The notes under the pieces: generated by a model
Database searches by the model: none
Seen by the model: only the letters and a program-made list of their open reading frames with translations
What the model was told of the DNA's origin: nothing
From: a virus
Taxonomy: Duplodnaviria > Heunggongvirae > Uroviricota > Caudoviricetes
DNA: 9,444 nucleotides
IMG/VR virus record: IMGVR_UViG_2695420714_000010
Reading direction: 5' to 3' (one strand)
Made by a program: the position numbers and the translations under genes
Shown: piece after piece, positions 1-9,444 of the stretch
How positions within the stretch are numbered: position 1 is the stretch's first letter
How the letters are laid out: each line of letters starts with the position of its first letter

Positions 1-65
1 CTGATAGTGACACCAATTTCAAAACAACCTTCAGACGTATTAACGTTTGGTAATAACGTTTCCAT
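1..65 (-). CDS. 5' end of a leftward gene running off the left edge of the window (N-terminus METLLPNVNTSEGCFEIGVTI...); product unknown
   Basis: ATG on the minus strand at 65-63, preceded by GAGGA about 8 nt upstream; frame stays open to position 1. Found by manual reverse-complement translation; it is not in the ORF track because the gene is cut by the window edge. Confidence 0.25.
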   Translation of the reverse strand, partial: METLLPNVNTSEGCFEIGVTI

Positions 66-633
66 TATCGCGTCCTCAACAATGAATTTTGTGATGCGAT
101 GCCTGGTGCCTCCAGGTGACGTTAACCAGTTAACAATTAACGCCGGATACAGAGAATCCACCCATAACACTGTTTTTGGTTTTAACTGTTCCGCGTGCGC
201 TCAGCCGCATTCACCACATCACAAAATTCACTTTAAAAAGGGCGGCAGAGCAGTCACGGAGTAAAACTGATACCGCCAAACGTCACCAGAAAATTGATAA
301 CAGAGGGCGTTGCAGCGGGGTTGTCACTTAAGCGTATGGTCAACCTGACAACCCGGTGTCCTCAACGGGGGAAGGAATAACCCCGCCATACTTACCGCCG
401 CGCCATTTCGCGGATTGCCACAACCGGAAGCGCACGGTCGACGAAAATTTAACGACAGGCTATCTATGAACCAGCTACCTCGCCGTGCGCTTTCGCGTTA
501 TGGTCTGACTTTTCAGGGAAATATCCTTTCAGTAAACTGTCAATGCCGGATGCTCACCCGTGTCCGGCGCACGCACTCCACCTCACCCGTGGAGAACTCC
601 TTAATTACTAACCTTAGCTTTGTTGATTAGCTA

Positions 634-1248: not shown

Positions 1249-1349
1249 GTTCTTACGCCTCGGGCTGGCTACTTAACCCCTGACCACTGCCTGGTAACTC
1301 GAAGTATTGCCCTGCATTCTGTGGGGTGGGGTGGGTTGGTATGAAAGGA

Positions 1350-1392
1350 AGGATACCCATGGGTATCCAAAAAGTAAATACCCATGGGTAAT
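1350..1392. promoter_or_regulatory. OL-like operator pair overlapping a candidate leftward promoter
   Basis: Perfect 18-bp palindrome GGATACCCATGGGTATCC at 1351-1368 and a second site ATACCCATGGGTAAT at 1378-1392. On the minus strand: candidate -35 TTTACT (plus 1378-1373), 17-bp spacer, -10 TATCCT (plus 1355-1350). The palindrome sits across the spacer and -10, which is classic repression geometry. Confidence 0.5.
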
Positions 1393-1432
1393 TTTTTGAT
1401 GTGTCTTAACTGGTGACTGGTTGTTTGGTGAG

Positions 1433-1852
1433 TTATGATGCGTTTTGTGCTTTCTTTTTACGGATTTCTTCGTAGATCATATTGTAATACTGTTTTTTCT
1501 CTTCAAGAGTTTTTAATAAGTTATCCGCTTCACTTTCTGGCAGTTCGTCTAAGAGATCTAAAAAAATACGTTGTCGTGGCGTTAGAACCCTTGTTTCATA
1601 ATTGGAGGCTGTGTTCGTTGATGATGAAACGATACCATCCATCCATCCCCGGGGTAACCCAAAGGACTCTTCTATAATCTCCACCATATCATCAGCGATC
1701 CGTTTTTTTCCTTTTTTCCCCTCTGGGTACAACATTCTTGATACATAAGAAGGCTCGCGACCGATCTTTCTGGCCACGTTAACCGCTTTACCATCGCATT
1801 TCTCATCACGAATTTTGATGAGTTGTTGTCGTCTAAATTCATATTTGTCCAT
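1433..1852 (-). CDS. phage repressor, HTH (Xre/CI-like) DNA-binding protein without a peptidase domain (RacR-like architecture), 139 aa from ATG 1852
   Basis: ORF-track ORF 1433-1894, but the start at 1894 is TTG; the first ATG at 1852 gives MDKYEF.... HTH-like segment KAVNVARKIGREPSYVSRMLYP. Sits between two operator clusters and is divergent from a cro-like gene. No Ser/Lys S24 peptidase domain (too short). Confidence 0.7.
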   Translation of the reverse strand: MDKYEFRRQQLIKIRDEKCDGKAVNVARKIGREPSYVSRMLYPEGKKGKKRIADDMVEIIEESFGLPRGWMDGIVSSSTNTASNYETRVLTPRQRIFLDLLDELPESEADNLLKTLEEKKQYYNMIYEEIRKKKAQNAS

Positions 1853-1952
1853 AGGTAAATAATAGATGCGATTACCGCAAGGTAAACAACCCAAGGGTAT
1901 TGACTTTTGTTTACCTGTGGGTATTCTTTGCTGTGTTTACTAAGGAGTAGCT
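1853..1952. promoter_or_regulatory. OR-like divergent promoter/operator region between the repressor and the cro-like gene
   Basis: Operator-like sites ACCCAAGGGTAT (1889-1900) and ACCTGTGGGTAT (1913-1924) match the OL palindrome half-sites. Additional inverted repeats TTACC-GCAA-GGTAA (1872-1885) and GGTAAACAA / TTGTTTACC (1881-1889 / 1908-1916). Rightward promoter: -35 TTGACT (1900-1905), 16-bp spacer, -10 TATTCT (1922-1927). Leftward -10 TATTAT (plus 1864-1859) ends 6 nt before the repressor ATG. Confidence 0.5.
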
Positions 1953-2234
1953 ATGGAAGAATTAAGAATATTTCTCAATTCTCTTTCGTCAGATGAACAG
2001 CGTATGTTTGCATGTGAGTGTGGTACTAGCATCGGTTATCTAAGAAAGGCATTGAGTAAAGGTCAAATGTTAGGGGCATCGTTATGTGTCCTTATTGAGC
2101 GAGCCAGTAATGGTGAAGTTACACGTCAGCAACTAAGGCCTTTTGATTGGATGAATATTTGGCCCGAGCTGGAAGATACCAAAACGTTAACACAACCACT
2201 TACTAGGAGCTTGATTCATGAAAATCAAGCATGA
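1953..2234 (+). CDS. Cro/YdaS-like small HTH regulator (93 aa)
   Basis: ORF-track ORF with a strong Shine-Dalgarno AAGGAG 5 nt upstream of ATG 1953. Divergent from the repressor. Carries an HTH-like segment (GTSIGYLRKALSKGQ) and the NIWPEL-type C-terminal motif I associate with the YdaS/Cro family. Stop overlaps the start of the next gene. Confidence 0.65.
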   Translation: MEELRIFLNSLSSDEQRMFACECGTSIGYLRKALSKGQMLGASLCVLIERASNGEVTRQQLRPFDWMNIWPELEDTKTLTQPLTRSLIHENQA

Positions 2235-2643
2235 ACACATCCGCATGGCGATGAATGCCTGGGCGCGTCCTGATGGCGAAAAAGTTCCAGCAGCTGGAAT
2301 AACCCAGGCTTATTTTGAGTTGGGTATGACGTTTCCTGAACTGTATGACGACAGCCATCCGGAAGCCCTGGCTCGCAATACCCAGAAAATTTTCCGCTGG
2401 GTAGAGAAAGACACCCCTGATGCAGTTGAAAAAATTCAGGCGTTGTTACCAGCGATCGAAAAGGCAATGCCACCTTTGCTGGTGGCCAGAATGCGCAGCC
2501 ACAGTTCAGCTTATTTTCGGGAGTTGGTGGAGACGCGGGAGCGACTGGTGAGAGACGCTGATGATTTTGTCGCAGTGGCAATCGCCGGTTTCAATCAGAT
2601 GAACCGTGGTGGCCCGGCAGGAAATGCTGTGGCAGTACATTGA
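2218..2643 (+). CDS. YdaT-like / CII-like regulatory protein (141 aa)
   Basis: ORF-track ORF, AGGAG 9 nt upstream of ATG 2218, overlapping the cro-like stop by 17 nt (operon coupling). Its position immediately after cro and before the replication gene matches lambda cII and Rac ydaT. Family assignment rests on synteny and memory, not on a search. Confidence 0.5.
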   Translation: MKIKHEHIRMAMNAWARPDGEKVPAAGITQAYFELGMTFPELYDDSHPEALARNTQKIFRWVEKDTPDAVEKIQALLPAIEKAMPPLLVARMRSHSSAYFRELVETRERLVRDADDFVAVAIAGFNQMNRGGPAGNAVAVH

Positions 2644-2714
2644 CTGACAATAGCCATATCGAATCGCTTCCGGCAATTCGTGAGTAAAAAGATTCGGTAT
2701 CAGAAGAGGTGAGT

Positions 2715-2873
2715 ATGGCTAACGCCTGGCTCAGATTATGGCATGACATGCCAAATGACCCTAAGTGGCGAACAATTGCCAGGGTGTCAGGGCAGCCAAT
2801 TGCAACAGTGATGGCAGTGTATATCCACGCTCCTGGTGAGCGCGTCACGAAATGTCACGCGAGGTCACATTGA
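2715..2873 (+). CDS. N-terminal segment of a phage replication initiator (MANAWLRLWHDMPNDPKWRTIARVSGQPIATVMAVYIHA...), terminated prematurely inside an iteron block
   Basis: ATG 2715 with GAGGTGAG Shine-Dalgarno. The 52-codon frame ends at TGA 2871-2873 after reading through iteron sequence (RVTKCHARSH). The N-terminus has the A-W-x-R-L pattern typical of phage replisome-organiser N-domains (recognised from memory). The downstream ORF continues in the +1 frame. Confidence 0.45.
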   Translation: MANAWLRLWHDMPNDPKWRTIARVSGQPIATVMAVYIHAPGERVTKCHARSH

Positions 2874-3786
2874 TGTCACGACAGAAGATTTGGCAAGTGC
2901 GCTCGACGTGACAGAAGAGGTAATTGATTCAATTTTGCAGACGATGCAGGGGCGGGTACTTGATGGTGATTTAATCACTGGATGGGAAAAACGCCAGGTG
3001 CTTAAAGAGGACAACGGCAATATTTCGCAAACCGCAAAATCTCCGGCAGAGCGCAAGAGGGCGCAGCGTGAGAGGGAAAGAAAGCGGGAACAAAATGGCG
3101 ATTGTCACGGCGCGTCACGAAATGTCACGCACATGTCACGACGAGTCACGACAGATAAAGATACAGATAGAGATACAGATAAAGAAGATCAAAACACTAT
3201 GGTCCATGGCGTAAAAAACGCCACGAACCATGTAGGGGATGTTCAGACCGTCACTCCTGGCCAGCCCGCAGGCACGACACCGGAAGCCGATTCAGCGTAT
3301 GCGCTGAAAGCCGATTCGGGCGCTGTGCAGCAGGCGATGACCGCTGGGCCGGAGCAATCACACCAACTGCAGCAGCCTGAAGCCGATTCCGCCATTCAGC
3401 GGGAAGCCGATCGGGTAGTCCCGGAAAACACCGGGCAGCCTGTGGGACGAGTGGATTATCCGGATGTGTTCGAACAGGTCTGGCGGGAATACCCGTTACG
3501 AGCCGGGGCAAACCCGAAGAAATCCGCTTTCAGTGCCTGGAAGGCCAGATTACGCGAGGGGGTGCCACCAGAGGCCATGCTGGATGGTGTAAGGCGTTAC
3601 ACAAGATACCTGGCTGCTACCGGGAAAACGGGAACGGAATTTGTTCAGCGAGCGACGACGTTTTTTGGACCGGACCGGAATTTTGAAAACCCCTGGTTGC
3701 TCCCGGTAAGCGGCACGAACAACCAGCGTTGTGTTAATCATATTTCTGAACCGGACACCGAAATTCCGCCGGGATTCAGAGGGTAA
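2836..3786 (+). CDS. replication initiator (O-like / YdaU-like), main ORF in the +1 frame relative to 2715; contains the origin iterons
   Basis: ORF-track ORF (GTG 2836; frame open upstream back to 2812). Domain-end motif ...DGDLITGWEKRQ, followed by iteron-encoded and acidic/basic linker sequence (DKDTDRDTDKED), then a C-terminal domain (YPDVFEQVWREYPLRAGANPKKSAFSAWKARL...). Iterons inside the gene mirror the lambda O/ori arrangement. Confidence 0.6.
   Translation: MSASRNVTRGHIDVTTEDLASALDVTEEVIDSILQTMQGRVLDGDLITGWEKRQVLKEDNGNISQTAKSPAERKRAQRERERKREQNGDCHGASRNVTHMSRRVTTDKDTDRDTDKEDQNTMVHGVKNATNHVGDVQTVTPGQPAGTTPEADSAYALKADSGAVQQAMTAGPEQSHQLQQPEADSAIQREADRVVPENTGQPVGRVDYPDVFEQVWREYPLRAGANPKKSAFSAWKARLREGVPPEAMLDGVRRYTRYLAATGKTGTEFVQRATTFFGPDRNFENPWLLPVSGTNNQRCVNHISEPDTEIPPGFRG
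2844..2880. repeat. iteron block A: four GTCAC(G/A) repeats at 10-11 bp spacing; contains an exact 21-bp copy of part of block B
   Basis: GTCACG at 2844, 2854 and 2875, GTCACA at 2864. GCGCGTCACGAAATGTCACGC (2840-2860) is identical to 3100-3120. Coincides with the frame break in the initiator gene. Confidence 0.55.
3104..3186. repeat. candidate replication origin: five GTCACG iterons (3104-3150) followed by three tandem 12-bp repeats ACAGATA(A/G)AGA(T/A) (3151-3186)
   Basis: GTCACG at 3104, 3114, 3124, 3135 and 3145 (one helical turn apart), followed by an A-rich tandem repeat. Lies in the inter-domain linker of the initiator gene, as in lambda ori. Confidence 0.6.
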
Positions 3787-3823
3787 CAGATTTCAGGTCA
3801 TGGGGTAATTTTCAGGAGGGCTT

Positions 3824-4099
3824 GTGGCAAAAGTTTTTACTCCCGAACTGCGGGAAGAAGTGAAGGCGCGCATTGTGGAACTGGTACGCAGAGATGGGCG
3901 AAAAACGCGTAAACAACTGGAAAATGAAACCGGGGCGACGAGACACCTGATAGAAGTTCTGGTGAAAGAGCTGGTAGTTAGTGGCGCAGTATATGGTTCA
4001 GGACATGGAATATTTCCTTCGGAGCAGGCTCGTAAGGACTGGGGAAAAGCCCGCAAAAAAAATGTCGAGAGCGGCAGTGAAAAAGAAGAGCGACCCTGA
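3824..4099 (+). CDS. small DNA-binding protein with a predicted winged-helix/HTH and a lysine/glutamate-rich tail (91 aa); possible regulator
   Basis: ORF-track ORF. GTG start at 3824 with a strong AGGAGG Shine-Dalgarno 4-5 nt upstream. HTH-like segment TRKQLENETGATRHLIEVLVKEL. Confidence 0.5.
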   Translation: MAKVFTPELREEVKARIVELVRRDGRKTRKQLENETGATRHLIEVLVKELVVSGAVYGSGHGIFPSEQARKDWGKARKKNVESGSEKEERP

Positions 4100-4232
4100 C
4101 CTGATTTATTCATTGCTAGATGGCGAAATACGCCGTTACAACAGACGACAGAATATAATTTGTCGCGAGTGTCGTCAGAGCGAAGTTATGCAGCGCATAC
4201 TGGAATTTTATCAGGGAAATGTTCGGTATTAA
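4059..4232 (+). CDS. small hypothetical protein (about 57 aa, MSRAAVKKKSDPDLIYSLLDGEIRRYNRRQNIICRECRQSEVMQRILEFYQGNVRY)
   Basis: Part of ORF-track ORF 3981-4232. The N-terminal part of that ORF overlaps the 3824-4099 gene out of frame, so ATG 4059 is preferred. No convincing Shine-Dalgarno. Could instead be the frameshifted continuation of the upstream gene. Confidence 0.25.
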   Translation, partial: KMSRAAVKKKSDPDLIYSLLDGEIRRYNRRQNIICRECRQSEVMQRILEFYQGNVRY

Positions 4233-4376
4233 TTGAAGTGACGAAATTAAAGAGCATTAGTTCAGATATTAATTGACACTTCGATGGCACAGGCCCAGAC
4301 CTAGTCTGGTTGTCAGCTTTGAGCTAGGTGAACGTTGGTATCGTTAGTTTGTATTAATCAACGGAGAATAGGCCAA

Positions 4377-4407
4377 ATGACTTTTCTTTGCCTCTTTTAA
4401 TTATAAT
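4377..4407 (+). promoter_or_regulatory. candidate sigma70 promoter for the 932-aa gene
   Basis: Perfect -10 TATAAT at 4402-4407 in an AT-rich intergenic region, with a weak -35 (ATGACT at 4377-4382, long spacer). Lies about 70 bp upstream of ATG 4476. Confidence 0.3.
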
Positions 4408-4475
4408 TCAAGTTCAATTGATTACATTGAAGTACTAATGTGAGTCCGTCAAACAAATAGCTCAAGGAATAGGTC

Positions 4476-7274
4476 ATGTGGGGAAGTGAAAACAAACAAA
4501 ATCTGGACGTACTGGATCCTGTGCAGTTGGTGCGTATCGAAGCGGTACACCGGGGGTTCCTTTACCAGCATCTTTACGCTGTAGGCTGCTTACTTTTGGC
4601 GCAGAGGGCAGCTATGGACTCAGTAACTGTCGAGCTTGATGAGGATATTGAGCTGAAATCCAAACAGGAACGTCTCTACATTCAGGTTAAAACCCGTTCA
4701 AAACCTATTATGCCCAACGATGTGTCGGGGGCTCTGGAGCGATTTGTAAAGCTCAGAAATGAGCATACTTCGGCAAACCGCGAAGGGGTGGCTTCTTTTG
4801 TGATTATTGTAAACCAGGCGCCTGGACCGCTGCTTCAGAAGATGATTGACGATAAAAAGCTTCCTTCTGATGTTCTTATTGTCTGGCCCCAGTCGACAGC
4901 TGGACGTCACCCGGCACTTCCGCCCGCATGGAGTACTCTGGCTGATGCGGCCACATGGTGTATCGCAGAAGCAGAAAAGCTGAAATTTTCACTATTGTCC
5001 CCAGAATCCTTGATTTGGAAGTTAGCAGGATTGGTTCAGCTTGCCGCCACCGGAGGCGATACCAATGGACAACATACGTTTTTCACGGAAGAACTTACTG
5101 AACTATTTGAACAGTTGATCGTTCAGCTACAGGACTTTCCTGCACCACCAGCACTGTACCGCCCACAGAACGAAGAACCTTCTCTCACATCTGGTGAGCG
5201 GATCCGTATCCTTTGTGGACTCTCAGGTGCAGGCAAGACAGCTTGGGCCGCACAGGCCGCATTACACTCCACTGCACTTTGTGCTTATTACGACACCGGT
5301 GATCTTCCCGGTCCAGCTCTGGCCAGTACGCTGGTGCGCGAGATGGCTGCTAGATTTACAGCCCGTGACCAAGACGGTTTGCGCAGGATTTTGCTCCCCG
5401 GTGCCAGTGGTTTTGAGGCTCTTAGGAGTTTTGATACCTACCTGAAAGAGCAGGGTACCACCTTGGTGCTGGTTCTGGATAACGCCCATCGTGTACCTGC
5501 GGAAAATCTACTGGATGTTCTGAATGCAACTACACATATTCGTTTTGTGCTGTTGTGCCAGCCTCACGAAAACGTTCGCGAACTGGAGGTCATGACGGGG
5601 CTACAGCGCGAGGGCCTGCAGGGATGGAATCTCGATACGGTAGCTGTCGTTGTAAACGATATCGGAGGATTTGCCACCGCTATGGGATACGAGCAGCTAC
5701 GGGCTTACACTGGTGGTCTTCCCCTGTATGTAGAGAGCGCCGCAAAAATCGCCGTTTCTGATTATGAGCGTAATGTCGATGCTCTGTGTGCTGAACTCCA
5801 GCAACAAACCCATACTGCGGAAACCGCCCAAGAAATTATTCTGTCACGTGTATTTCAGGGATTTGAATCACTACTTCAGAGCGCGCTGGCATTGTTCAGT
5901 CTCTCTGACGTAGGGCTGAGTCGCGAAGAGATTTCTACGCTCCTAATCAATTCGCTGAACATTTCACCAAGCAGTGCTGCTTCTTTAATTAGGAAAATGC
6001 GCGCTACTGGCACTATTGAAATTTATGGAAACCAGACCCTGAAGGTACATGATGCTGTCAGGGGGCTAGGACTGCAACATCTGGAACTGATGGATCAGGG
6101 TATATCGAACAAAGCGCTACTAGCGCTGAAAGACCTTTTAGTTGAAAGTCTTCATAATACCCGCAATACAAAACGGTTATCGTTGTTGACTCAACTTTAT
6201 ATTAAGCTCAATGATGTCACGACGTTGATCGAACTCTCAGGCCAAGAAATGTTTTATGAGATGGGCGTGACGGTCGACATTCTTGCAAGCTTGGAGCGTG
6301 CTGCAACATCGGACTTATTGGGACCTGTTCATAAATTCTGGGCATTGGATGGCCTTGTTTTCGTTGAGCTTAAAGACGGAATATCCGACCACATTGCTCA
6401 GAGGTTAAACATCATGGGAGCTTTACTTGCGGAGCACAAGTTCGGCTATCAAGAAGAGATGGCCTATGCAATGAAACGAATGTTATTTTCGGCAGAAAGC
6501 AATGATGCACGAGAAGTTCAAAAGCTGGCACAGGAAGTCCGCCCCCAACTCCCAGATGAAGAACATAAACGCATCTTTGACTACAACCATGCCATTGCAC
6601 TCTGGAGATTAAAAAAACTCAAGGATGCTGAAACATTAAGCTGTAATGTTATACAAGGGTACTATTCTTTATTTGGTATCACACCTGCTGATGTCATAGG
6701 AAAAAACGCCGACGCATTATGGAAAACTATTAATCATTCCGAAAATATGCAGGAACACTTTAAACATATGGCTGATGCTCTGGAGTTGCTGGCCAGAATT
6801 CGTGATGCGCAGGGAAAACTGTCACCATTACTGCGTATTCATTCGATGAAGTTCTACAATCTGGCCATGGCCCCGGAATCCATGGTCAGGGTGGGCCAAG
6901 ATCTGGCGGATGAGTTTGTTGCCATAAAGGATTACGACGGTGCCAAGGAAGTCATGGAGCAACATGTCCTGCCGGTTGTCAATGAGGCAGGTCTAGTACA
7001 TCGACTGATTCAGGTTCGAAGCCAATACGCAGTCATATTAGCACTATCGGGTCAGCATAAAGCAGCTGATGTCGAAATGCAGCGCCTTGCTCCCTATATC
7101 GAAGGCCTCACAGGTGTACAGCGTCAAGAAATCCAAAATCAATCAAATTACATCGTACAGCTTGCCCATAAAGCAGCAAAGACTAAATTAACTGAAGTTT
7201 TTGGTGCGGTCGGCCGGAATGAACAATGCCCCTGTGGCTCGGGAATAAAGTACAAAAAATGTCACGGTGCCTGA
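4476..7274 (+). CDS. large multidomain protein (932 aa): N-terminal PD-(D/E)xK-like nuclease region, STAND-type P-loop NTPase, winged helix with VHD motif, helical-repeat C-terminal region, terminal SEC-C zinc motif; candidate antiviral STAND (Avs-like) defence protein
   Basis: Single uninterrupted ORF with AAGGA about 10 nt upstream of the ATG. Walker A ILCGLSGAGKT (nt 5217-5240), Walker B TLVLVLDNAH (nt 5463-5483), VHD motif KVHDAVRGL (nt 6042-6068), SEC-C CPCGSGIKYKKCHG (nt 7227-7268), N-terminal VELDEDIELK...YIQVK (nt 4632-4691). The gene is certain; the function is inferred from motifs only. Confidence 0.85.
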   Translation: MWGSENKQNLDVLDPVQLVRIEAVHRGFLYQHLYAVGCLLLAQRAAMDSVTVELDEDIELKSKQERLYIQVKTRSKPIMPNDVSGALERFVKLRNEHTSANREGVASFVIIVNQAPGPLLQKMIDDKKLPSDVLIVWPQSTAGRHPALPPAWSTLADAATWCIAEAEKLKFSLLSPESLIWKLAGLVQLAATGGDTNGQHTFFTEELTELFEQLIVQLQDFPAPPALYRPQNEEPSLTSGERIRILCGLSGAGKTAWAAQAALHSTALCAYYDTGDLPGPALASTLVREMAARFTARDQDGLRRILLPGASGFEALRSFDTYLKEQGTTLVLVLDNAHRVPAENLLDVLNATTHIRFVLLCQPHENVRELEVMTGLQREGLQGWNLDTVAVVVNDIGGFATAMGYEQLRAYTGGLPLYVESAAKIAVSDYERNVDALCAELQQQTHTAETAQEIILSRVFQGFESLLQSALALFSLSDVGLSREEISTLLINSLNISPSSAASLIRKMRATGTIEIYGNQTLKVHDAVRGLGLQHLELMDQGISNKALLALKDLLVESLHNTRNTKRLSLLTQLYIKLNDVTTLIELSGQEMFYEMGVTVDILASLERAATSDLLGPVHKFWALDGLVFVELKDGISDHIAQRLNIMGALLAEHKFGYQEEMAYAMKRMLFSAESNDAREVQKLAQEVRPQLPDEEHKRIFDYNHAIALWRLKKLKDAETLSCNVIQGYYSLFGITPADVIGKNADALWKTINHSENMQEHFKHMADALELLARIRDAQGKLSPLLRIHSMKFYNLAMAPESMVRVGQDLADEFVAIKDYDGAKEVMEQHVLPVVNEAGLVHRLIQVRSQYAVILALSGQHKAADVEMQRLAPYIEGLTGVQRQEIQNQSNYIVQLAHKAAKTKLTEVFGAVGRNEQCPCGSGIKYKKCHGA

Positions 7275-7551
7275 GTCTTTGTACGACCATGCGGGCCTTA
7301 TTGTCTTGCTATTGCTCTTATGGTTCGCCTTTCTGATTGATTTCATATTGGCGAGGTGACGGGAGTTAAGTAGAATGGCTGCGGGTGCTTGAGGCTATCT
7401 GTCTCAGGCATGAACACCAAAGGCAGATAGAGAAAAGCCCCAGTTAACATTACGCGTCCTGCAAGACGCTTAACATTAATCTGAGGCTCAATCTATGAAC
7501 GGCAAATCTAGGTTAGCCTCTTACGTGCCGAAAGGCAAGGAGAAGCAGGCT

Positions 7552-7707
7552 ATGAAGCAGCAAAAGGCGATGTTAATCGTCCTGATCGTCATCTGTTTAA
7601 CCGTCATAGTGACGGCACTGGTAACGAGGAAAGACCTCTGCGAGGTACGAATCCGAACCGGCCAGACGGAGGTCGCTGTCTTCACAGCTTACGAACCTGA
7701 GGAGTAA
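7552..7707 (+). CDS. hokD: Hok/Gef-family membrane toxin (51 aa), HokD/RelF-like
   Basis: MKQQKAMLIVLIVICLTVIVTALVTRKDLCEVRIRTGQTEVAVFTAYEPEE: single hydrophobic helix plus the conserved LVTRKxLCE...EVAVFxAYE signature of Hok/Gef toxins. Matches my recollection of E. coli RelF/HokD almost residue for residue. AAGGAG about 9 nt upstream of ATG 7552. The ORF track extends the frame to 7495, but the 51-aa form fits the family. Confidence 0.8.
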   Translation: MKQQKAMLIVLIVICLTVIVTALVTRKDLCEVRIRTGQTEVAVFTAYEPEE

Positions 7708-7802: not shown

Positions 7803-7874
7803 CCTGGCATTCTGGTTTACAATTCGCACGCCAGCCTGAACAACTGGCACCTGCTGCGCCAGCAGAGACAACCG

Positions 7875-8153
7875 ATGGCGCACGATACCAAATTACACAA
7901 TTCTAATGATTCTGCTGTCTTTGCCAGCAGGTGCGGACGGCGTTTTCACGCATTCACATCAGACTGGTTCCAGCATCCTCCATGCACTGAAGAGCAGGCT
8001 GAATGGATAATTCAGTGTTACCGCAGGCGTGGATACGAGGTTAAGAAAGCTCTTAGTCTCGACTATCGTCACTGGATAATCTCAGTCAGACTCCCTTACT
8101 CCGAACGCCCACCGCGTCCGTCCCGCACATTCCAGCAACGCATCTGGAGGTAA
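7875..8153 (+). CDS. small prophage protein, copy 1 (92 aa; conserved core WFQHPPCTEEQAEWIIQCYRRRGYEVKKALSLDYRHWIISVRLP); possibly Rem-like by position
   Basis: In-frame ATG inside ORF-track ORF 7746-8153. The upstream part of that ORF overlaps the hok terminator and has no counterpart in the paralogue at 8575, so the start is placed at 7875. Translationally coupled to the next gene. Confidence 0.55.
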   Translation: MAHDTKLHNSNDSAVFASRCGRRFHAFTSDWFQHPPCTEEQAEWIIQCYRRRGYEVKKALSLDYRHWIISVRLPYSERPPRPSRTFQQRIWR

Positions 8154-8468
8154 CGTGCGGGTATTACTTCGACCTGTTCTGGTACCGGAACTCGGGCTGG
8201 TGATCGTTAAGCCGGGCCGTGAATCCATGCCGGTATTCCACAATACCCGGGTACTGGTGGAGCCGGAACCGAAAAGCATGCGTAATCTGCCGTCCGGGGT
8301 CGTTCCTGCCGTTCGCCAGCCGCTGGTGGAAGACAAAACATTGCTGCCGTTTTTCAGTAACGCACGGGTGATTCGTGCTGCTGGTGGTGCTGGTGCATTG
8401 TCTGACTGGCTGTTGCGCCATATTAAATCCTGCCAGTGGCCACACGGCGATTATCATCACAGCGAAAC
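7875..8468. repeat. direct repeat, copy A of the small-gene + DUF968 cassette (paired with 8575-9168, offset exactly 700 bp)
   Basis: From about 7961 to 8468 the sequence is near-identical to 8661-9168 by eye. The 5' 85 bp (7875-7960 vs 8575-8660) are homologous but diverged. Confidence 0.7.
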
Positions 8469-8508
8469 AGGAATAAAAGCAGGCTTTTCAGCTTTTGCAG
8501 AAGAATAA
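8155..8508 (+). pseudogene. 3'-truncated DUF968 (YdfU)-family / NinG(Rap)-like protein, copy 1 (117 aa, homology lost after ...HGDYHHSET)
   Basis: GTG 8155 immediately after the upstream stop, with GGAGG 5 nt upstream. Near-identical to the first 105 codons of the gene at 8855, then diverges at 8469 and stops at 8506-8508, before the CWHCDN zinc-finger-like segment present in copy 2. Confidence 0.55.
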
Positions 8509-8574
8509 ACTCATCTACAATCTTGCGCGGGGCTGAACTCCCGCTGAGTAACACCGTGCCACCGGAGAAAACCG

Positions 8575-8853
8575 ATGGCACGCAACGTAAAATATTACAA
8601 TTCTGATAATTCGCCCGTTCTTGCCTGCACGCACGAGCGGTATTCTCACGCATTCAAGTCTGAATGGTTCCAGCACCCTCCATGCACTGAAGAGCAGGCG
8701 GAATGGATAATTCAGTGTTACCGCAGGCGCGGATACGAGGTTAAGAAAGCTCTTAGTCTCGACTACCGTCACTGGATAATCTCAGTCAGATTGCCTAACT
8801 CCGAACGCCCACCGCGTCCGTCCCGTACATTCCAGCAACGCATCTGGAGGTAA
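8575..8853 (+). CDS. small prophage protein, copy 2 (92 aa), paralogue of 7875-8153
   Basis: ORF-track ORF with ATG 8575 and GGAG about 8 nt upstream. N-terminal 30 aa diverged from copy 1, the remainder near-identical. Confidence 0.65.
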   Translation: MARNVKYYNSDNSPVLACTHERYSHAFKSEWFQHPPCTEEQAEWIIQCYRRRGYEVKKALSLDYRHWIISVRLPNSERPPRPSRTFQQRIWR

Positions 8854-9168
8854 CGTGCGGGTATTACTTCGACCTGTTCTGGTACCGGAACTCGGGATGG
8901 TGGTCGTTAAGCCGGGCCGTGAATCCATGCCGGTATTCCACAATACCCGGGTACTGGTGGAGCCGGAACCGAAAAGCATGCGTAATCTGCCGTCCGGGGT
9001 CGTTCCTGCCGTTCGCCAGCCGCTGGTGGAAGACAAAACATTGCTGCCGTTTTTCAGTAACGCACGGGTAATTCGTGCTGCTGGTGGTGCTGGTGCATTG
9101 TCTGACTGGCTGTTGTGCCATATTAAATCCTGCCAGTGGCCACACGGCGATTATCATCACAGCGAAAC
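8575..9168. repeat. direct repeat, copy B of the small-gene + DUF968 cassette
   Basis: See copy A. Identity ends at 8468/9168, after which copy A has unrelated sequence and copy B continues as coding sequence. Confidence 0.7.
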
Positions 9169-9444
9169 CGTCATTCACCGTTATGGTACCGGCGCAATGG
9201 TGTTGTGCTGGCACTGCGACAACCAGCTGCGTGACCAGACATCCGAATCACTCGGGCAACTTGCTCATCAAAACCTGTCAGCATGGATGATTGACGTCAT
9301 CGGTCACGCAATAAGCGGTACGCAGGAGCGTGAATTATCTTTGGCTGAATTATCCTGGTGGGCGGTCCGCAATCAGGTGGCGGACGCGCTACCGGAAGCG
9401 GTATTACGTCGTTCGCTGGGGTTGCGTGCGGAAAAAATCCGCTC
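8855..9444 (+). CDS. DUF968 (YdfU)-family / NinG(Rap)-like protein, copy 2, apparently intact; 3' end beyond the window
   Basis: GTG 8855 coupled to the upstream gene (GGAGG-TAA-C-GTG). Frame is open to the window end (196 codons, manually translated). Contains a Cys/His cluster (CQWPHGDYHHSE ... LCWHCDNQ) reminiscent of NinG/Rap HNH-like zinc motifs. Confidence 0.65.
   Translation, partial: MRVLLRPVLVPELGMVVVKPGRESMPVFHNTRVLVEPEPKSMRNLPSGVVPAVRQPLVEDKTLLPFFSNARVIRAAGGAGALSDWLLCHIKSCQWPHGDYHHSETVIHRYGTGAMVLCWHCDNQLRDQTSESLGQLAHQNLSAWMIDVIGHAISGTQERELSLAELSWWAVRNQVADALPEAVLRRSLGLRAEKIR

Follow-up and report, generated by a model that had tools for sequence, protein, structure and literature searches.

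A candidate Avs-type antiviral STAND receptor with a SecA-like C-terminal tail encoded in a Qin-like lambdoid prophage

RESULTS

Organization of the locus

The window analyzed here is a 9,444-nt stretch of viral DNA (IMG/VR record IMGVR_UViG_2695420714_000010). It contains a gene for a 932-aa protein, and this gene was found to be a self-contained 3.1-kb insert in a region of a Qin-like lambdoid prophage that varies (Table 1). The open reading frame was present just as a first-pass annotation of the sequence had described it. Its start is conserved, as M1 is almost invariant in alignments of homologs, and a Shine–Dalgarno-like AAGGAA precedes the ATG at 4464–4469. In E. coli prophages the gene occupies the variable interval between DUF977 and hokD, and the sok/hokD locus starts directly downstream at position 7383. 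The first-pass annotation had placed the gene in a prophage accessory position behind its own AT-rich promoter region. The accessory position was borne out, since the gene is a self-contained insert that is missing from most related prophages. The AT-richness of the leader was also evident, with a GC content of 36% for positions 4201–4500. However, a scan of the + strand between 4233 and 4475 against the sigma-70 consensus identified no promoter-like site, so the proposed promoter was not confirmed. Similarly, no terminator-like site was found in the 3' flank. The leader does not accompany the gene between genera, and the block of nucleotide sequence conserved across genera is the open reading frame alone (4465–7298).

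Table 1. Features of the locus (nucleotide positions in the window)
Feature	Residues	Position	Strand	Remarks
5' cassette flank, AT-rich leader		4220..4475	+	Homology to gene-less prophages stops at ~4204–4220
932-aa open reading frame	1–932	4476..7274	+	ATG start
Cap4/LmuA/HamA-type PD-(D/E)xK nuclease domain, N-terminal	~15–220	4518..5135	+	
Predicted catalytic core: E53, D55, D57, E59 ... Q70-x-K72	53–72	4632..4691	+	Strands beta-2 and beta-3
STAND nucleotide-binding oligomerization module (NBD, helical domain, winged helix)	~236–540	5181..6095	+	
Walker A, GLSGAGKT	G248–T255	5217..5240	+	G251, G253 and K254 invariant
Walker B, LVLVLDN	330–336	5463..5483	+	D335 invariant; N336 kept in at least 90%
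GLPL-like motif, GGLPL, helical domain	413–417	5712..5726	+	P416 invariant; G414 and L417 nearly so
MHD-like motif, K523-V-H525-D526, winged-helix domain	523–526	6042..6053	+	H525 invariant; D526 in at least 90%
TPR-like alpha-solenoid, presumed sensor	541–908	6096..7199	+	
SecA-like metal-binding domain, SEC-C motif: RNEQCPCGSGIKYKKCHG	914–931	7215..7268	+	Follows a variable linker
3' cassette flank	 	7275..7362	+	Homology to gene-less prophages restarts at 7363

Domain architecture of the 932-aa protein

The protein consists of a Cap4/LmuA-type PD-(D/E)xK nuclease, a STAND NTPase, a TPR-like solenoid and a SecA-like metal-binding tail, in that order; all four domains had been proposed in the first-pass annotation, and each assignment held when it was tested. 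In an alignment of 51 relatives with 29–47% identity, eight positions of the nuclease domain (H25, G27, Q31, H32, D57, E59, Q70 and K72) and six of the NTPase module (G251, G253, K254, D335, P416 and H525) were invariant. As these residues are invariant at such low overall identity, the motifs are not chance matches. Strong purifying selection thus acts on the predicted catalytic and nucleotide-binding residues throughout a deep family. Nearly all of 240 family representatives (clustered at 50% identity, E <= 1e-30) are 880–960 aa long and their NTPase match begins at about residue 220, indicating that the single-gene architecture is fixed. Effector swapping was sought among the representatives and little was seen; the N-terminal segment of ~220 residues is kept. 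The PADLOC, NCBIfam and PHROGs HMM libraries returned matches at the domain level (LmuA, HamA, DUF4297 and SEC-C) and no system-level name.

The nuclease domain adopts a PD-(D/E)xK fold in which acidic residues and a (D/E/Q)xK motif are conserved, and the structure model places strands at residues 58–61 and 65–72 of the core. The acidic residues followed by QxK were present as originally proposed, but the position given was off by one, as VELDEDIELKSKQERLYIQVK corresponds to residues 52–72 rather than 53–72. E53 and D55 are kept in at least 90% of the sequences among relatives with 28–47% identity. The match of the protein itself to Pfam Cap4_nuclease was a narrow pass (27.1 bits versus a cut-off of 26.2, a margin of 0.9 bit), and 37 of the 51 relatives matched Cap4_nuclease/DUF4297 (PF14130), with a best E-value of 1.3e-9. 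Taken with the invariance of D57, E59, Q70 and K72, these results uphold the earlier assignment of a Cap4/DUF4297-type core.

The central region contains Walker A and B motifs, a GxP/GLPL motif in the helical domain and a conserved winged-helix histidine, and it matched Pfam AAA_22 with 32.6 bits (cut-off 27). The annotated Walker A (ILCGLSGAGKT, residues 245–255), Walker B (TLVLVLDN, 329–336) and MHD-type histidine motif (KVHDAVRGL, 523–531) were each located by script at those residues. In the model the MHD-like motif comes after a beta-hairpin formed by residues 514–524. The solenoid is all-helical in the model, with pLDDT values mostly between 75 and 95, and its fold matches were TPR proteins (LGN, APC subunits and the PH0952 TPR protein); Pfam TPR matches were also obtained for a few relatives. 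Thus, the helical, TPR-like character suggested for this region is well founded. Mean identity in the solenoid was 57% compared to 69% in the NBD. The overall pTM of the model was 0.49, and the arrangement of the domains, and hence autoinhibition, is therefore not established by it.

A SecA-like tail at the C-terminus

The CPCGSG...CHGA tail at residues 918–932 was located by script, and the Pfam SEC-C (PF02810) score of 38.8 bits lay well above the cut-off (20.4), which bears out the C-terminal SEC-C motif of the first annotation. [quoted passage not shown] It retains the CxCx8CH ligands as well as the conserved Ser and Tyr of the SecA MBD, and CPCGSGIKYKKCH aligns with SecA and YchJ peptides. 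When solved structures were searched with the family profile, the only matches were tail peptides of SecA and YchJ, and Avs proteins were not among them. With 74% mean identity, the tail is conserved better than any other segment of the protein, and it is disordered in the model (pLDDT 40–58).

The SEC-C tail was present in ~63 of 96 distant full-length relatives, or about two thirds. As it is absent from the remaining third of the family, we consider it an accessory element, and since it was lost at least ~21 times in a crude tree it is not essential for the core function. SEC-C tails also occur on unrelated defense proteins, nucleases among them, including DS-23, PDC-S12 and E2-type PADLOC models, the last of which we take to be CBASS Cap2-like E2s.

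The tail resembles the C-terminal MBD of SecA and the MBDs of YecA (AscA) and YchJ in its ligands and in the conserved Ser and Tyr, and, like the MBD of SecA, it follows a poorly conserved linker at the extreme C-terminus. However, those MBDs ride on a translocase or a chaperone, whereas here the domain is carried by an immune-type nuclease–NTPase. No report of a SecA-like tail on this STAND family was found in the literature searched; a SEC-C motif is unmentioned by Kaur et al. (2020), and Lee et al. (2026) refer to neither a SEC-C nor a zinc motif in the available text, legends, methods or discussion.

Distribution of the gene

The identical protein is encoded on 383 contigs. The gene was found in 16 of 5426 E. 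coli genomes and is missing from most related prophages. Members of the family are carried by 54 plasmids, 21 of them conjugative, with one plasmid copy adjoining an Eleos-like LeoA pair, and by nine IMG/VR contigs, two of which have different flanks. In V. cholerae the neighbors include a Gabija-like pair, AbiH, a PIN protein and an integrase; a Gabija-like pair is also nearby in Yersinia, and the Serratia gene is a lone insert. The setting was defense-associated or mobile in all genera examined. The relatives reside in prophages, conjugative plasmids and defense islands and not mainly at non-mobile loci, which agrees with the defense reading proposed at the outset. The gene moves on its own among these three settings. 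The database name of the protein points to a SecA-related secretion accessory.

DISCUSSION

A model for the 932-aa protein and its alternatives

The most likely explanation for these results is that the gene encodes a single-polypeptide, Avs-type antiviral STAND receptor that is carried as cargo of the prophage, and we regard this reading as probable. Antiviral activity is inferred here from architecture, and the mechanism by analogy with Avs3, Avs4 and Avs7. In the uninfected cell the protein would be a closed, autoinhibited monomer. Binding of a conserved phage protein by the TPR solenoid would open the NTPase module, which would then oligomerize in the ATP-bound state and gather the nuclease domains into an active assembly. 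Indiscriminate cleavage of double-stranded DNA by this assembly would abort the infection, and the prophage would benefit because its host is shielded from other phages.

The role of the tail is more speculative. Its most likely function would be to anchor the receptor on SecB and/or ribosomes, or else to adjust autoinhibition. Binding to SecB and ribosomes is known for the MBDs of SecA and YecA/AscA, and the similarity on which this idea rests spans ~20 residues. A broader proposal, which we put forward tentatively and consider rather doubtful, is that the tail serves as a portable 'docking tag' by which immune nucleases are brought to SecB and/or ribosomes. A receptor docked in this way could sample newly made phage proteins; alternatively, an abundant host factor would become its co-receptor or the target that it guards. 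Precedents for host factors exist, as Avs7 incorporates EF-Tu and bNACHT25 senses perturbation of DnaJ.

These precedents would also suit a guard, in which the SecA-like tail monitors a host process (for example SecB, ribosomes or the Sec pathway), no phage protein is recognized by the TPR region, and the nuclease fires when a phage disturbs the monitored process. The strong conservation of the tail with the hallmarks of the SecA MBD, and its recurrence on unrelated defense proteins including the validated DS-23, are consistent with such a sensor. However, the one third of full-length relatives that have no tail retain an intact nuclease, NTPase and solenoid, and the solenoid, with its 370 residues, shows the conservation and good folding expected of a ligand-binding sensor. 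We therefore consider a guard unlikely, and direct recognition of a phage protein by the solenoid the better reading.

Whether the protein acts alone can be judged from its neighbors. Several Pseudomonas contigs have AbiH 60 nt downstream of the gene, V. cholerae has it within 5 kb, and in E. coli hokD/sok is the next locus downstream, such that a multi-gene system requiring one of these partners could be envisioned. But the neighbors differ in every genus, AbiH is missing at the Serratia, Yersinia, E. coli and two examined plasmid loci, related prophages without the gene also carry hokD, and conservation across genera does not extend beyond the open reading frame. As the neighbors vary, we reject an obligatory partnership with AbiH or hok/sok, and a multi-gene system of any kind is highly improbable.

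An equally improbable reading is that of a non-immune STAND protein, such as a MalT-like regulator, a factor for replication or recombination of the prophage, or a secretion accessory related to SecA. In place of a DNA-binding output domain there is a nuclease with invariant catalytic residues, the resemblance to SecA is confined to the short tail, and the gene has defense-island neighbors in other genera. A core phage function is also excluded by its absence from most related prophages. Finally, a selfish addiction module, in which killing by the nuclease would stabilize the mobile element in the absence of phage sensing, is the least probable of all: the gene invariably resides in mobile or variable DNA and adjoins hok/sok, itself an addiction module, but it has no conserved antitoxin partner, its large sensor and NTPase switch lack an obvious role in simple addiction, and some genomes retain the mobile element although an IS element interrupts the gene.

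If the receptor reading is correct, the protein adds another compact, single-gene member to the NLR-like receptors of bacteria, from a family that ranges from enterobacteria to rhizobia. As the gene travels on prophages and conjugative plasmids in species of clinical importance (E. coli, Klebsiella, Salmonella, P. aeruginosa and Vibrio), it would then have consequences for the host range of phages and for phage therapy. Since at least 90 defense-associated STAND families have already been cataloged, the receptor by itself would be an incremental addition. The antiviral STAND class is well known, and the unusual feature of the 932-aa protein is its SecA-like tail. The more useful lead is that immune receptors may dock on SecB or ribosomes by means of a SecA-type tail, extending the examples of host factors provided by EF-Tu and DnaJ. 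If the tail, which some two thirds of the family and several unrelated defense proteins carry, is such a docking tag, its spread would make it a general and so far unrecognized module of bacterial immunity.

Comparison with known systems

The order of an N-terminal effector, a central STAND NTPase and a C-terminal repeat sensor, together with the association with defense islands or mobile elements, almost certainly places the protein in the Avs class by architecture, which supports the compact Avs-like organization proposed initially. HMMs for Avs1–5 (AVAST types I–V), bNACHT and PD-Lambda-4 in PADLOC-DB v2.0.0, a release that presumably contains models for all of these systems, gave no match to the protein at E <= 10 or to the 51 relatives at E <= 0.01. 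No solved SeAvs7 chain was among the fold or sequence matches. As neither the PADLOC models nor the profile search of solved structures linked the protein to an Avs, its relationship to these receptors is one of architecture and fold only.

The suggestion in the first-pass annotation that the family might be undescribed was weakened by comparison with a recent search for defense STANDs. The Escherichia protein WP_021564393.1 is essentially the same protein, with two differences over residues 227–435, and its NTPase domain is seed #193 in Table S1 of that search (Lee et al. 2026, bioRxiv 10.64898/2026.01.04.697583); hence, the family has been cataloged. The same preprint describes 589 STAND clades, lists the cloned STANDs in Table S6 (119 rows), and reports that the Cap4 nucleases of SeAvs7 and SeAvs3 tetramerize upon target binding and that inactivation of the effector abolishes toxicity. 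No phage-protection or toxicity data on the 932-aa protein were found in the literature, which was also searched with the family accessions.

SeAvs3 (PDB 8DGC) and SeAvs7, both Avs receptors with Cap4-type nuclease effectors, are among the closest systems. The 932-aa protein is about half the size or less (the SeAvs3 chain has 2028 aa), and its sequence similarity to solved Avs proteins is undetectable even with the family profile. A further difference is that many Avs families swap their N-terminal effectors, whereas this family does so little. A SecA-like metal-binding tail is unmentioned in the Avs literature that was searched.

The tail is shared with DS-23 (WP_020231147.1), a validated defense protein for which the accessible part of the report describes a C-terminal SEC-C zinc finger at residues 693–716 (DefensePredictor, Science 2026, PMC13092281). 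According to the same source, DS-23 has 719 aa, is Upx/Mrr-related with the Mrr-type restriction endonuclease UpxA (Gao_Upx) as its nearest known defense protein, and has no reported STAND module. It was rejected as a homolog because its first 399 residues gave no significant BLASTP match.

The nuclease domain is of the same type as those of Lamassu LmuA, Cap4 of CBASS and Hachiman HamA. No gene for LmuB, a CD-NTase or HamB adjoins the gene at the E. coli, Serratia, Vibrio, Yersinia and Pseudomonas loci. An adjacent SMC gene, the expected Lamassu partner, was not found in E. coli, Serratia, Vibrio or Yersinia, and in Pseudomonas the opposite strand encodes an SMC_N protein at a distance of ~7 kb, past a transposase. 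LmuA, Cap4 and HamA are controlled by the SMC-like LmuB, a SAVED/cyclic-nucleotide sensor and a helicase, respectively, whereas the nuclease of the 932-aa protein would be controlled by the STAND NTPase to which it is fused.

The 932-aa gene product and its family

The single long ORF to which the first-pass annotation had assigned a nuclease, a STAND NTPase, a helical repeat and a SEC-C motif was present in the window (see table). A script located the Walker A (residues 245-255), Walker B (329-336) and KVHDAVRGL (523-531) motifs exactly where they had been reported, whereas the acidic/QxK string, reported at residues 53-72, was present but spans 52-72. The predicted C-terminal SEC-C motif, CPCGSG...CHGA, occupies residues 918-932. 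Pfam models exceeded their curated cut-offs for SEC-C (38.8 versus 20.4 bits) and AAA_22 (32.6 versus 27 bits), and marginally for Cap4_nuclease (27.1 versus 26.2 bits). The gene had also been placed behind an AT-rich region containing its own promoter. The leader is AT-rich (36% GC), but a sigma-70 consensus scan of its + strand found zero promoter-like sites. As nucleotide conservation between Serratia and the window is limited to 4465-7298, we conclude that no promoter travels with the gene.

Features of the window and of the 932-aa protein
Feature	Position	Strand	Basis or remark
DicF antisense sRNA	240-291	-	Rfam RF00039, 76.7 bits
AAGGAA, putative ribosome-binding site	6 nt 5' of ATG	+	sequence inspection
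STAND-protein ORF	4476..7274	+	932 aa, ATG start
sok	7383-7557	+	Rfam, 110 bits
hokD CDS	7552-7707		within hok/sok locus
Alpha/beta N-terminal domain	residues ~15-220		AlphaFold2 model
P-loop NTPase, then helical domain and winged helix	residues ~236-540		AlphaFold2 model
Solenoid, all-helical	residues 541-908		AlphaFold2 model
C-terminal tail, disordered	after solenoid		AlphaFold2 model

A word-indexed search returned 933 relatives, the best 120 of which came from Enterobacterales, Vibrio, Shewanella, Aeromonas, Pseudomonas, Alteromonas and beyond; almost all of these 120 were 927-944 aa long. The exact protein was found on 383 contigs; Salmonella, Klebsiella and P. aeruginosa are among its close clusters. 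Searching exhaustively with residues 225-932 gave 549 representatives at 50% identity, of which 240 had E <= 1e-30. The full-length representatives were nearly all 880-960 aa long and their match started near residue 220, indicating that the N-terminal effector is fixed rather than swapped. When relatives of just 28-47% identity were aligned, D57, E59, Q70, K72, G251, G253, K254, D335 and P416 were invariant, and H525 invariant or nearly so. In many STAND/NB-ARC proteins a sensor-I arginine follows the fourth NTPase strand; at this position (residues 359-364, VLLCQPH) the family has a conserved Q362-P363, and R339 is invariant among close relatives only.

Predicted structure and relation to Avs proteins

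The AlphaFold2 model, for which 40 homologues were used, had a mean pLDDT of 79.9 and a pTM of 0.49, the latter leaving the relative placement of the predicted domains uncertain. Fold matches to this model, with the two values recorded for each, were MalT (14.1, 373), LmuA (13.2, 200), SeAvs3 (13.1, 242), Apaf-1 (12.3, 356), Cap4 (12.3, 188), HamA (11.9, 210), PH0952 (11.8, 483), NRC1 NB-ARC (11.1, 228) and AVAST5 (10.2, 260). Thus, the nuclease, STAND NTPase and helical-repeat assignments hold at the fold level.

Among 51 diverse members, AAA_22 matched 49 and Cap4_nuclease 37, while the PADLOC models LmuA and HamA matched 39 and 23, respectively. None of the 51 matched the PADLOC AVAST or bNACHT models, which were run without a positive control, and a family profile searched against solved structures matched no Avs protein by sequence. 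From these results we conclude that the family is a distinct STAND lineage, which on profile evidence stands outside the older Avs sequence families; the likeness to a compact Avs protein proposed initially is one of architecture and fold.

The family had been considered possibly undescribed. However, in Lee et al. 2026 (bioRxiv 10.64898/2026.01.04.697583), a survey of defence STAND NTPases, seed #193 is WP_021564393.1 (Escherichia, NTPase 227-435), whose sequence departs from that of the window protein at two of those 209 residues. The seeds of that survey comprised defence STANDs, known or predicted, and BLAST matches with effectors such as Cap4 and Mrr. The family had thus been recognised as a candidate defence STAND beforehand, and may already carry an Avs number in that survey; of its features, only the SEC-C tail appears to be unreported.

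A single-gene insert in an E. coli prophage, and contexts elsewhere

In E. coli the gene sits in a Qin-like lambdoid prophage with dicB, ydfABC, a repressor/YdaS/YdaT switch, replication genes, DUF977, the STAND gene, hokD/sok, DUF968, RusA and Q. DicF in the window is consistent with the Qin-like prophage, given dicB and ydfABC in annotated genomes. The gene was present in just 16 of 5426 complete E. coli genomes, and in related prophages the interval is occupied by different cargo: a DUF551 gene, strings of small ORFs, or ParDE. Homology with related gene-less prophages stops at ~4204-4220 and restarts at 7363, which defines a 3.1-kb insert with one gene; on two IMG/VR contigs the gene has different flanks. 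The hok/sok type I toxin-antitoxin locus directly 3' of the insert (7383-7707) also occurs in related prophages lacking the 932-aa gene and is therefore independent of it.

Just 5' of the insert, the DUF977 gene (3824-4232) is split into overlapping ORFs 3824-4099 and 3981-4232; genome NZ_CP148579.1, which is 100% identical, carries it with the annotation 'frameshifted', but in strain AR_0089 it is intact (417 nt). Collinearity between the window and every reference locus ends at 8468. A 300-nt direct repeat (86% identity; 7858-8157 and 8558-8857, extending to 9444) has a spacing of 700 nt, the first DUF968 copy is truncated (ORF 8155-8508), and 8558-9444 maps again onto the 'hypothetical + DUF968' region at 85-95% identity. 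Two readings apply to this region: a diverged tandem duplication, or a mosaic/chimeric junction of two prophage copies. ISEc52 (IS3-family) splits the STAND gene in at least one complete genome (NZ_OZ546984.1, annotated as two fragments), and an IMG/VR locus (L021, 8001-12049) has a break at window ~5587-5590 (match span 4049 nt versus 2796).

The mobile, accessory position originally proposed withstood the refuting test set for it: the settings inspected in E. coli and elsewhere were not mainly conserved, non-mobile contexts. The V. cholerae neighbourhood contained a Gabija-like OLD-TOPRIM/UvrD pair, AbiH, PIN and an integrase; the Pseudomonas locus lay within a metal-resistance island, Yersinia had a Gabija-like pair, and in Serratia the gene was a lone insert amid metabolic genes. 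Among 54 plasmid records (21 conjugative), one locus had integrases and an antitoxin. In another, Klebsiella plasmid NZ_CP054968.1, a 1922-aa 'ATP-binding protein' and an Eleos-like LeoA/HP0731 dynamin-like GTPase pair flanked the gene (1252-7020 and 14439-18254) with group II introns nearby; these surroundings look like a plasmid defence island. Two distant genera had an AbiH-family gene close to the STAND gene: it lay there in Pseudomonas (L003-L006, 12860-13762; same strand, 60 nt downstream) and V. cholerae (L002, 4465-5424), and was absent from the E. coli, Serratia, Yersinia and two plasmid loci. In some lineages the two genes may travel together as a pair.

Candidate mechanism

The protein combines its nuclease-NTPase-solenoid architecture with conserved catalytic and nucleotide-binding residues, and its gene is autonomous and found in defence-type contexts. 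It is a candidate antiviral protein. By analogy with Avs3 and Avs4, and with SeAvs7 as described by Lee et al. 2026, the resting protein would be a closed monomer. Binding of a conserved phage protein by the solenoid would allow the NTPase module to oligomerise in its ATP state, and the Cap4-type domains would then come together as an active nuclease, whose DNA degradation would abort the infection. Conservation of the sensor falls only moderately below that of the NTPase (57% versus 69% identity), and this moderate divergence would fit recognition of a conserved target.

The SecA-like tail

No segment of the protein is better conserved than the tail (74%), which retains the CxCx8CH ligands along with the conserved Ser and Tyr. 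The SecA metal-binding domain (MBD) matched residues 914-931 at 16 of 20 positions; for the H. influenzae SecA peptide in PDB entry 1ozb, a SecB co-crystal, the figure was 16 of 21, and the YchJ C-terminus matched too. The tail was found in ~63 of 96 distant full-length relatives, and relatives lacking it appeared already at 55-71% identity (e.g. homologues P0045-47 and P0114). On a crude neighbour-joining tree of 64 family members its state changed at least 21 times, with presence inferred at the root. This distribution indicates that the tail is dispensable for core function.

SEC-C tails also end PADLOC models PDLC00833/00865/00870-00872 (E2, E1-E2) and PDLC04917 (PDC-S12). In the DefensePredictor paper (PMC13092281), DS-23 (WP_020231147.1), a single-gene E. 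coli system ending in a SEC-C tail, bears one of the DS numbers given to validated systems, and 'SEC-C domain-containing protein' is among the product names in a supplementary table of predicted defence genes. DS-23 was rejected as a homologue of the window protein. These occurrences suggest that the SEC-C tail is a recurrent defence-linked C-terminal module across several unrelated defence-associated families. PHROGs 18195 and 24700 likewise end in this tail (window protein residues 895-931).

Our literature search found no paper treating a SEC-C motif on a STAND receptor. The SecA MBD binds SecB and ribosomes, and YecA/AscA binds both in an MBD-dependent manner. Given the host-factor precedents of Avs7/EF-Tu and bNACHT25/DnaJ, it is a reasonable hypothesis that the tail would dock to SecB or ribosomes; inference on the tail rests on ~20 residues. 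As in SecA, the tail is placed behind a variable linker.
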